Shown: in pieces, positions 50,027-57,441 of the stretch
Numbering within the stretch: the first letter of the stretch is position 1
Layout of the letters: each line of letters opens with the position of its first letter
Assembly: GCA_049968255.1 (NCBI GenBank)
Contig: JBMFRB010000003.1
Span: forward strand, 256,998 to 320,997
DNA: 64,000 nucleotides
Reading direction: 5' to 3'
DNA from: Candidatus Sumerlaeaceae bacterium
Lineage (GTDB): Bacteria; Sumerlaeota; Sumerlaeia; Sumerlaeales; Sumerlaeaceae
Translations under genes and position numbers: made by a program
Notes under the pieces: generated by a model
The model's input: the letters and a program-made list of their open reading frames with translations, nothing else
Database searches by the model: none
Told to the model about the DNA's origin: nothing

Positions 50027-50035
50027 TGTTATAAT
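50027..50035 (+). promoter_or_regulatory. Extended -10 sigma70 promoter
   Basis: Perfect TGnTATAAT (TGTTATAAT) 22 bp upstream of ATG 50058. Confidence 0.6.
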
Positions 50036-50057: not shown

Positions 50058-50465
50058 ATGCGGCTAAGACAATTCCTCTGCCTTTGCATGCTCTGGGCTC
50101 TGGTGCAGCTGGCGGCCGGATGGTATTCCACAGCTGGCCCGCAGGCCTCCTGTTCGACATTGCCGTGCGCCTTTGCCTGTTGTGCAACATGTGATGGTTG
50201 TTGCACCAGCGACGACCCAAAAGGTTGTGACATCTCCGAAACGCAAGACTGCCGCTGTAGCTGCTCGCTTCCCGTCAGCAGCGACCAGTCTGCTCTCCCA
50301 TTTCAGCGCAAGTATTCCTTCCAGACGCGGGTGGAAAGGGCACTAGTCGCCGTCCTTGACGATGTGGTGCCGATTGTGGCCCGCGGAGCAATGCGCGACG
50401 CCCACTTTGGCCACAACTGGAGTTCCCTCCCACGGTATCTTTTGAATAGGGTTCTACGGAATTGA
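50058..50465 (+). CDS. Cys-rich DUF2946/CruR-like putative leader protein (135 aa)
   Basis: Basic then hydrophobic N-terminus, 11-Cys cluster (CC, CC, CxCxC), C-terminal LPRYLLNRVLRN. Confidence 0.65.
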   Translation: MRLRQFLCLCMLWALVQLAAGWYSTAGPQASCSTLPCAFACCATCDGCCTSDDPKGCDISETQDCRCSCSLPVSSDQSALPFQRKYSFQTRVERALVAVLDDVVPIVARGAMRDAHFGHNWSSLPRYLLNRVLRN

Positions 50466-50606
50466 TCTCGTGGCAGCGTTGTGACCACCGCGCGTTGCGA
50501 GCACACGCTGCCTGTGATGAGGATGGGCCACCCCCTCTGGGTGCCCTGTGCGCTCGAGAGGTCCGCAATACGATTACGAACCCTCAGATTTCAAGGAGTA
50601 ACACCC

Positions 50607-50813
50607 ATGTTGAAGAACCTCGCGATGGCGTTGACTGCCATCACCCTCATGGCCGCACCAGTGGTCTCGTTTGCCCAGACTTGTGGCGGGTCGAAAGATT
50701 CCATGCCCAAGTGCGAGTGCAAAGATGGAAAATGCGGCTGCAAGGACGGCAACTGCAGTTGTGGGAAAGACTGCAAATGCGAAAAGTGCGGTCATTCCAG
50801 CGACAAGAAGTAA
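50607..50813 (+). CDS. Exported metallothionein-like protein (68 aa)
   Basis: AAGGAG RBS; signal peptide ending VSFA; 45-aa mature part has 10 Cys with four CxC, Lys/Gly/Asp-rich, no Phe/Tyr/Trp. Confidence 0.8.
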   Translation: MLKNLAMALTAITLMAAPVVSFAQTCGGSKDSMPKCECKDGKCGCKDGNCSCGKDCKCEKCGHSSDKK

Positions 50814-50859: not shown

Positions 50860-50915
50860 GGGAAGCTGCTCGGTAACGGCATACAGCCGAGACTTGCAGC
50901 TTCCCTTCTTTTTTT
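50860..50915 (+). terminator. Probable Rho-independent terminator
   Basis: GGGAAGCTGC / GCAGCTTCCC stem with inner CTCGG/CCGAG, then TTCTTTTTTT. Confidence 0.6.
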
Positions 50916-51441
50916 CTCACTTCTCGATGTGGTAGAGATCTGCGTGATCGCAAAGGTGTTTTTGGTTGAGAACGACCATCCCGCGAACATGAGTTTGCCC
51001 TTCGTCCGAGCCGCTCTACCCACATCCCTAATACCTCACCCTGCAGGGTTCAGCTCAGAGAACTACGGTGGTGACGTCAAAAACTTGCACAAAACGATTG
51101 GAAAACGCGAAGCGGACTCTCGTTCTCGTGCGATGCAGCGTCCGGCTGTTCCATCATCCATTGGGGGGCGAGTTGCGCTGTCAAGCCGCGCGATACTCAT
51201 AGACCGATGCGTCATTTTGTCATTAACATGTTCATGTGAGATCTTCCCAAATTGTTAGATGACGTCCTGACCATGACCGCATGGCAGGGATGAGCGTAGC
51301 CCTATAGACGTGCAGTGCGACATTCAGATTCTGAGGTCATCCGCAAAAGCAAAGTAGCACGCATCTTTGCGGTGAGCAGCGGTCACGCCAGGTTTCCATG
51401 CACCGAAAATGCAGGCTGTGCCAACGATAGCCGACACTTCG

Positions 51442-57109: not shown

Positions 57110-57365
57110 CTCCCCTCACTGTTGAATCGACCAGGCCAGAGAATCTTTGACCATTCGCGTCGAAGGACGCATAACGGACGGAAAGAAAACAACCAAGGTT
57201 TTGTGGGGGGCACGCAACACTCAACGGTGCACACTGTCGGCTTGGACTTAGCATCAAGCATCGCATTGTTCATCGACCCCTTGCCTAAGCGAAAGGAATG
57301 GGCACCCTTGAGTCCAAGCCCCGCGCTGCGGAGCAACGTGCTGTTGCCCTCGGGGAAAAACAACG

Positions 57366-57441
57366 TGGTGGAGGCAAGGGGATTCGAACCCCTGACCCTC
57401 AGACTGCCAGCCTGATGCTCTCCCAACTGAGCTATGCCCCC
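57366..57441 (-). tRNA. tRNA-Ala (GGC)
   Basis: GGGGGCATAGCTCAGTTGGGAGAGC...CT-GGC-AG...GGTTCGAATCCCCTTGCCTCCACCA; G3:U70 pair; 76 nt. Confidence 0.98.

Follow-up and report, generated by a model that had tools for sequence, protein, structure and literature searches.

The closest described systems in which a short upstream ORF controls its neighbour are CruR of Bordetella and CutF, encoded by the first gene of the Rhodobacter cutFOG operon. CruR is reported to sense copper via a CXXC motif and a RAPP arrest motif, and to control Rho termination (PMC9426467). CutF is described as being exported co-translationally and binding copper via CxxxC, whereupon its proline-rich end stalls and a stem masking the Shine-Dalgarno sequence opens (PMC9973294; bioRxiv 10.1101/2025.02.05.636593). 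Cysteine-rich CutF-like genes mostly lie ahead of copper-homeostasis genes (PMC9973294), and CzcI-type members of the group are reported to have no proline motif (PMC9973294; bioRxiv 10.1101/2025.02.05.636593). The word "metallothionein" does not occur in the main texts of the three CutF and CruR papers.

Small thiol-rich metal binders form the second point of comparison. Metallothioneins are small and very cysteine-rich, with CxC and CxxC motifs and few or no aromatic residues; one of them, SmtA, is controlled by the SmtB repressor. MymT is listed as cytoplasmic (PMC11672702), and PmtA is described as surface-located without a signal peptide, its reported phenotypes being antioxidant rather than Zn- or Cd-detoxifying (PMC11237414). 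Csp1 and Csp2 are described as Tat-exported Cys-thiolate Cu(I) stores (PMC5171941; PMC11672702); they form rigid four-helix-bundle tetramers, and the rigid bundle together with Tat export is considered to avert oxidation (PMC5171941). Bufferins, by comparison, are Sec-exported peptides with an enzymatically modified, Cys-rich core (PMC11626156). Within this group the Buf_EGKCG peptides, or oxazolins, carry EGKCG motifs in 17-residue repeats or in an EF-hand fusion, and sizeable proportions of bufferin-type precursors are reported to be unlinked to MNIO genes (PMC12452194).

The gene studied here (gene 2; 50607..50813, + strand) lies in the window, by which we mean the whole 64-kb stretch of DNA that was analysed. 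Its translation gives a 68-aa precursor of a metallothionein-like miniprotein, and the 45 residues that follow residue 23 (50676..50810, +), 10 of them Cys, are the mature sequence quoted in the earlier note. A Shine-Dalgarno sequence, AAGGAG (50593..50598, +), is positioned 8 nt upstream of the ATG. Codon usage weakly favours the gene 2 frame (+0.03 bits per codon), the shifted frames scoring -0.24 and -0.21 and the reverse strand -0.02. When all window ORFs of at least 45 aa were scored, a density of at least 10 Cys per 45 residues was reached by two, gene 2 and its upstream neighbour, gene 1. The highest Cys densities in the window thus belong to two adjoining genes.

Gene 1 (50058..50465, +) is a Cys-rich, signal-bearing leader ORF of 135 aa with 13 Cys. 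Its most plausible start is 50058, the in-frame starts at 50034 and 49944 overlapping or preceding the promoter element. The N-terminus is signal-like in a rule-based test, both a CxxC and a CxxxC motif are present, and the protein ends in ...LPRYLLNRVLRN. An extended -10 element, TGnTATAAT, with a poor -35 (50027..50035, +), was read from the sequence at the head of the two genes; this motif occurs three times in the 64 kb, both strands counted. Gene 1 is separated from gene 2 by a 141-nt intergenic spacer (50466..50606, +), a candidate regulatory RNA. Past the gene 2 stop codon lies an intrinsic-terminator-like hairpin with a U-tract (50860..50918, +), formed by an inverted repeat with a 10-bp perfect outer stem; the hairpin itself (50860-50905) is predicted at -30.0 kcal/mol and the U-tract comes next. 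Neither the promoter element nor the terminator was listed by the promoter/terminator scan, because that scan required a -35 match and limited loops to 8 nt. Promoter element, Shine-Dalgarno sequence and terminator bracket exactly genes 1 and 2. Gene 2 is the second gene of a two-gene unit behind gene 1, in a cassette of ~0.9 kb overall. The earlier note dealt with gene 2 by itself, and to that extent was incomplete: it missed the co-transcribed Cys-rich leader ORF, which is the most informative feature of the locus.

Family models and database searches returned little for either gene. Gene 1 matched nothing in Pfam or NCBIfam, and a protein search with it retained 1 of 29 candidates, namely gene 1 itself. 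In the ESM Atlas it reached 0.96 to unnamed clusters, all 30 of 30 matches lacking a common Pfam family and the commonest taxa being Planctomycetota and Thermodesulfobacteriota, so that it belongs to a broad, unnamed protein type. The miniprotein retrieved only itself, both in a word-indexed protein search (1/1 candidate) and when HMMER was run in full against 1.84 billion representatives (one match). It had no match among PDB sequences, nor by tblastn, with the low-complexity filter on, in plasmids and phages. Its ESM Atlas leads were clusters auto-named "Metallothionein family protein" (82-86 aa, commonest in Myxococcota), whose scores of 0.86-0.87 lie below the trusted 0.9 and make them leads only.

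A scan of GTDB genomes with the Cys skeleton of the miniprotein (6 Cys + Gly) returned at least 120 loci. Long flanks were available for 80 of the 120 listed loci, and at least 700 nt of upstream sequence for 76 of the 121 matches when the window is included. The listed skeleton matches were mostly off-frame Gln/Ala/Pro repeats. Among the 121 matches listed (120 loci and the window), 33 fell in a started ORF of at most 120 aa, seven of these ORFs had a loosely signal-like start, and inspection left only two as both signal-bearing and metallothionein-like, the window and one further locus, L012. Candidates set aside as exported metallothionein-like proteins were L001 and L120, which are off-frame Leu/Cys runs, L097, which owes its signal score to a false start upstream, and two Cys-rich ORFs of other types, L066 and L098.

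The L012 cassette (L012:3397-4057, +) is found in a Pirellulales MAG (JAXMBI010000004.1) and pairs a leader with a peptide. The leader has 142 aa, a signal and 13 Cys, with CxxC and CxxxC both present; the peptide, encoded 67 nt downstream of it, is signal-bearing, has 54 aa and 13 Cys, lacks a basic n-region in the rule-based signal test, and its gene is followed by a strong hairpin. A leader-like ORF directly upstream was seen in 2 of the 121 matches listed, L012 and the window. The background expectation is 0.005 such ORFs per 310 nt (19 in 1.26 million strand-bases), an optimistic figure because both leaders were already known when the cut-offs defining "leader-like" were chosen. Similarity between the two cassettes is slight: the leaders align marginally (E = 0.036), and the peptides share 8 of 14 residues in a region that was selected by the search pattern itself. 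Searches of plasmids with the window leader and the L012 leader found none. A profile built from the two peptides returned 1/1 candidate, the miniprotein, and did not recover the L012 peptide, which shows that these protein searches are insensitive to such peptides. The comparison shows that the window and L012 share a recurring architecture (n = 2), common descent of the two not being established. Recurrence of the pairing in a second, unrelated bacterium suggests an undescribed extracytoplasmic metal-buffering module.

Given these observations, gene 2 is very probably a real gene. That it might be an unexpressed chance ORF could be argued from the protein searches, which returned no homologue; its Shine-Dalgarno sequence, terminator, signal, Cys density and frame preference, and the existence of a second cassette, make this a very remote prospect.

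Several other ORFs came to light in the same scan. Three Bacteroidota MAGs carry signal-less metallothionein-like ORFs of 37-40 aa (L079:3944-4057, +; L089:295-408, -; L097:295-417, -) with the common pattern C-x4-CxC-x2-CxCG-x2-CxC-x2-C. None of the three matches Pfam or NCBIfam, and no leader was found upstream of L079, the one with long flanks. By their sequence, they are a possible unannotated family of cytoplasmic metallothioneins. A rumen MAG contains a 260-aa ORF (L033:3617-4399, +) whose start is signal-like and whose long central part, rich in Cys and Lys, resembles a metallothionein; it has no family match and no upstream leader. In a Planctomycetaceae MAG, a 136-aa signal-bearing ORF rich in Cys and Tyr (L017:4399-4809, -) passed the leader filter but is of a different type.

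Gene 1 resembles CutF and CruR in its first position, size, signal-like N-terminus, Cys motifs and long spacer. Both the window leader and the L012 leader pass three of the four filters by which CutF-like genes were described (PMC9973294), being shorter than 150 aa with a signal-like N-terminus and a same-strand neighbour within 1 kb. At the Cys density of these leaders, CxxC and CxxxC motifs arise easily. Unlike CutF and CruR, gene 1 has neither PP/RAPP nor DUF2946, and it has far more Cys: PP in the last 15 residues and RAPP are absent from both leaders, and neither leader matches the DUF2946 profile. The targets also differ, CutF and CruR controlling an oxidase, an efflux pump or a TonB receptor, whereas the target of gene 1 would be a tiny chelator.

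RNA folding gave different pictures for the two cassettes. The window spacer folds with a z of -0.12 and has no Rfam match beyond one chance-level hit. Opening its ribosome-binding site (RBS) is predicted to cost 5.4-6.3 kcal/mol in the free RNA and 4.1-7.1 kcal/mol with a modelled ribosome, so that an RBS switch opened by a ribosome at the leader end is not predicted in the window. Pairing of the leader tail with the RBS was also considered as a switch, and was rejected because the duplex lies within background (7% of 11,618 background windows and 14% of 2,000 synonymous recodings). In L012, 33 nt across the leader stop codon are predicted to pair with the RBS (-25.2 kcal/mol), a duplex reached in 0.6% of 7,884 background windows, as the best of a scan and uncorrected for multiple testing. 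The cost of opening the L012 RBS falls from 11.7-13.7 to 5.1-7.4 kcal/mol once a ribosome blocks the leader stop. A Shine-Dalgarno-masking stem at the leader stop, like that of the cutF-cutO arrangement, is thus predicted in L012 and not in the window. Within gene 1, the stretch 50270-50329 is weakly folded and C-rich, with a C/G ratio of 1.92 that falls between the 95th (1.67) and 99th (2.16) percentiles; it could serve as a Rho (rut) site of the CruR type.

These results bear on whether the leader regulates at all. Genes 1 and 2 might merely be co-transcribed exported Cys-rich metal binders, gene 1 having no cis-regulatory role, as would fit a leader that lacks PP and RAPP, a window in which no RBS switch is predicted, and 13 leader Cys where a single-CxxC sensor would need far fewer. 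Against that reading stand the first position, the 67-141-nt spacer and the size, all of which match the published leader class, along with an anti-RBS sequence in L012 that spans the leader stop codon, and we regard it as unlikely, though the most serious of the alternatives. By analogy with CutF and CruR, we place a metal sensor acting in cis on gene 2 slightly above even as the role of gene 1.

Export of the gene 2 product is likely. Residues 1-23 form a predicted Sec/SPI signal peptide (50607..50675, +; rule-based), with Lys3, a hydrophobic core, Pro at -6 and an S-F-A cleavage site, and with neither a lipobox nor a twin-Arg motif in this N-terminus. The signal peptide proposed in the earlier note is upheld by the rule-based test, which was passed by 7 of the 398 ATG-started window ORFs of 45-120 aa; gene 2 is the only one of the seven with more than four Cys. 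Residues 1-28 also match the N-terminus of NF047414 weakly (E = 0.012, below the cut-off). The public record of gene 2 has its start at Met7, and a start there, or a hydrophobic N-terminus left uncleaved, would yield a cytoplasmic or membrane-anchored peptide, as the signal-less Bacteroidota ORFs L079, L089 and L097 with the same Cys skeleton might suggest. The AAGGAG, however, is correctly spaced to Met1 and therefore favours the Met1 start over Met7, and with basic n-region, hydrophobic core and S-F-A site all in place, this alternative appears highly improbable.

The mature miniprotein has the composition of a metallothionein. Cys makes up 22% of its residues, in four CxC and one CxxC motifs with spacings of 9,1,4,1,4,1,3,1,2, and it contains 10 Lys, 7 Asp/Glu, 1 His and no aromatics. 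Two adjoining CxCKDG(K/N) units (50712..50753, +) had been described as a 21-bp duplication from which the sequence was built. The two seven-residue units, CECKDGK and CGCKDGN, are indeed there, yet only 15 of 21 nt are identical, and the codons for Lys, Asp and Gly each differ at the third position. To call the peptide "built from" them is an overstatement given this identity, the fact that TRF reported no tandem array at these units, and their coverage of only 14 of the 45 mature residues. In profile searches, the full precursor scored against Pfam Metallothio_Euk (PF12749) at E = 0.002, with 18.5 bits against a gathering cut-off of 22, while the mature miniprotein alone gave no match to that model; none of the prokaryotic metallothionein models in Pfam and NCBIfam matched the miniprotein at E of at most 1. 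A single-sequence structural model (pLDDT 65) shows a run of short beta-hairpins and no helix, and fold searches with it gave a best E of 8.1 in Foldseek and a best Z of 3.2 in the other search.

Like the miniprotein, SmtA/BmtA/PmtA and MymT are small and Cys-rich, with CxC motifs and presumed thiolate metal clusters; they differ in having no signal peptide, whereas the miniprotein has a signal-like N-terminus. No SmtB-like repressor gene was seen in the window. A metallothionein-like exported peptide, as the earlier note had it, is still the best reading, with which composition and the L012 example agree; "metallothionein" proper is a putative label, the sole family match being Metallothio_Euk, short of its cut-off. 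Its remark that an exported metallothionein would be unusual carries less surprise in view of two precedents, Tat-exported Csp1/2 and surface-located PmtA. By titles and abstracts, the open-access literature yielded no description of a signal-peptide-bearing bacterial metallothionein, nor of a cassette joining a leader ORF to a metallothionein.

Export also raises one of the main doubts about a sensor-and-buffer reading, the others being the lack of an arrest motif, the negative RNA result for the window and n = 2: an unstructured, Sec-exported peptide with 10 Cys would tend to oxidise, and the even Cys count is compatible with five disulfides. The product might then be a secreted miniprotein knotted by disulfides, or else a thiol redox buffer; neither would carry metal physiologically, and a connection with the divergent cytochrome bd operon is conceivable. 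Such a product would fit the Sec route into an oxidising compartment, the even number of Cys, the short beta-hairpins of the predicted model (pLDDT 65), the antioxidant phenotypes reported for PmtA (PMC11237414) and the divergent cydAB genes 340 nt away. With no aromatics and almost no aliphatics to build a core, and with a CxC-dominated spacing, the miniprotein makes a poor candidate for it, and the L012 peptide has an odd number of Cys (13) and no cyd neighbour; we consider this explanation improbable. On composition, a metal-binding role for the miniprotein is reasonably probable, and copper specifically is a tentative choice of metal.

Bufferins and the Buf_EGKCG peptides or oxazolins (HvfA type) are likewise small, Sec-exported, Cys-containing peptides and serve in copper stress. 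They are distinguished by MNIO and DUF2063 modification, DUF2282, and cores with 6 or 12 Cys or EGKCG repeats, none of which was found with the miniprotein. DGKCG, raised earlier as a hint of a RiPP, does not bear that weight: it occurs once, EGKCG does not occur, there are no 17-residue repeats, and no MNIO is encoded nearby. The accompanying statement that the window has no DUF692 gene is borne out by a profile scan of 64 window ORFs (61 of them at least 180 aa), which found none, nor any DUF2063; the miniprotein has no DUF2282 match. The scanned L012 ORFs likewise include no MNIO, and the L012 peptide has no xGKCG. A bufferin or oxazolin reading is unsupported, then, because DUF692 is missing nearby and EGKCG is absent. 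Modification in trans is possible, since stand-alone bufferin precursors are reported to exist, and gene 2 could encode the precursor of a RiPP, with an MNIO (DUF692) encoded elsewhere modifying its Cys to give a bufferin- or oxazolin-type copper chelator. A Cys-rich core behind a Sec signal is also what bufferins have (PMC11626156), sizeable proportions of precursors are unlinked to MNIO genes (PMC12452194), and one DGKCG is present; the lack of EGKCG, of a 17-residue repeat and of DUF2282 in the miniprotein, together with the lack of an MNIO among the 64 window ORFs and the scanned L012 ORFs and of xGKCG in the L012 peptide, renders such a precursor a doubtful proposition.

No metal efflux, multicopper oxidase or metal-sensor families were found among the 64 window ORFs scanned, and no metal transporter, oxidase or sensor was found flanking either cassette. 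The neighbours of L012 are unrelated peptidases, with no cyd gene adjoining. Divergent from the window cassette are cydA-cydB and, behind them, an aldo-keto reductase/chlorite dismutase-family fusion of 625 aa (window:45309-49687, -), and a minus-strand TATAAT is present at about 49784. Convergent with the cassette lies a gene for an 864-aa HEAT-repeat protein (window:51442-54036, -). A YbjQ-family protein, termed "putative heavy-metal-binding" in Pfam, is encoded 6 kb downstream (window:56789-57109, +), with no link to the cassette shown, and an FHA-EAL fusion protein (window:57744-58892, +) adjoins a tRNA-like stretch at about 57320-57400. Genes for CtaA/COX15, a UbiA-family (CtaB-like) protein, an ABC transporter and SCO1/SenC (window:3257-7779, -), a cluster for haem-copper oxidase assembly, lie 43-47 kb from the cassette; the SCO1, CtaA and UbiA-family genes suggest that the host assembles a haem-copper oxidase.

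The reading we prefer is an exported thiolate metal buffer under a cis-acting metal-sensing leader, which taken as a whole we hold to be evenly poised. One promoter would give a transcript of gene 1 and then the miniprotein, ending at the intrinsic terminator. The nascent gene 1 leader, under translation and export, may bind metal with its Cys cluster, by analogy with CutF and CruR; the bound metal would alter how long the ribosome dwells at the C-terminal end of the leader, and gene 2 expression would be switched. Because gene 2 would yield a peptide that sequesters metal, its expression is likely to be induced when envelope metal, probably Cu, is in excess. The miniprotein would be exported by Sec and cut after Ala23, and the 45-aa product, located in the cell envelope, would hold several soft metal ions in a Cys-thiolate cluster, from its composition most likely Cu(I) and possibly Ag, Zn or Cd. 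Wider still, and rather unlikely as it stands, is an unrecognised, multi-phylum class in which Sec-exported true metallothioneins, acting through unmodified Cys-thiolate clusters beyond the cytoplasm, are joined to a new kind of proline-free metal-sensing leader or arrest peptides with a C-terminus approximating (R)xL(L/Y)xxxLx, both genes having been largely missed by annotation and profile searches.

Should the preferred reading be true, an unmodified, Sec-exported metallothionein would join MNIO-modified bufferins and Tat-exported Csps as a third way of buffering copper in the envelope, and would raise the testable question of how thiolates escape oxidation once outside the cytoplasm. Leaders without PP/RAPP fell outside the published CutF survey through its filter, and the ~0.9-kb cassette offers a minimal test system for Cys-rich leader-like ORFs of this kind, which make up a large, unnamed group. 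Biosorption or biosensors are possible uses for a secreted 45-aa chelator that brings its own metal switch. The miniprotein may be likened to Csp1 and Csp2 as an exported, unmodified Cys-thiolate Cu(I) store, a role proposed for it from sequence; Csp1 and Csp2 are Tat-exported helical bundles, whereas the miniprotein has 45 aa, a Sec-type signal and no helix in its predicted model. The cassette is outside each of the compared families where membership was tested, and what it appears to do is combine known kinds, a proposed metallothionein- or Csp-like chemistry with a proposed control like that of cutF and cruR.
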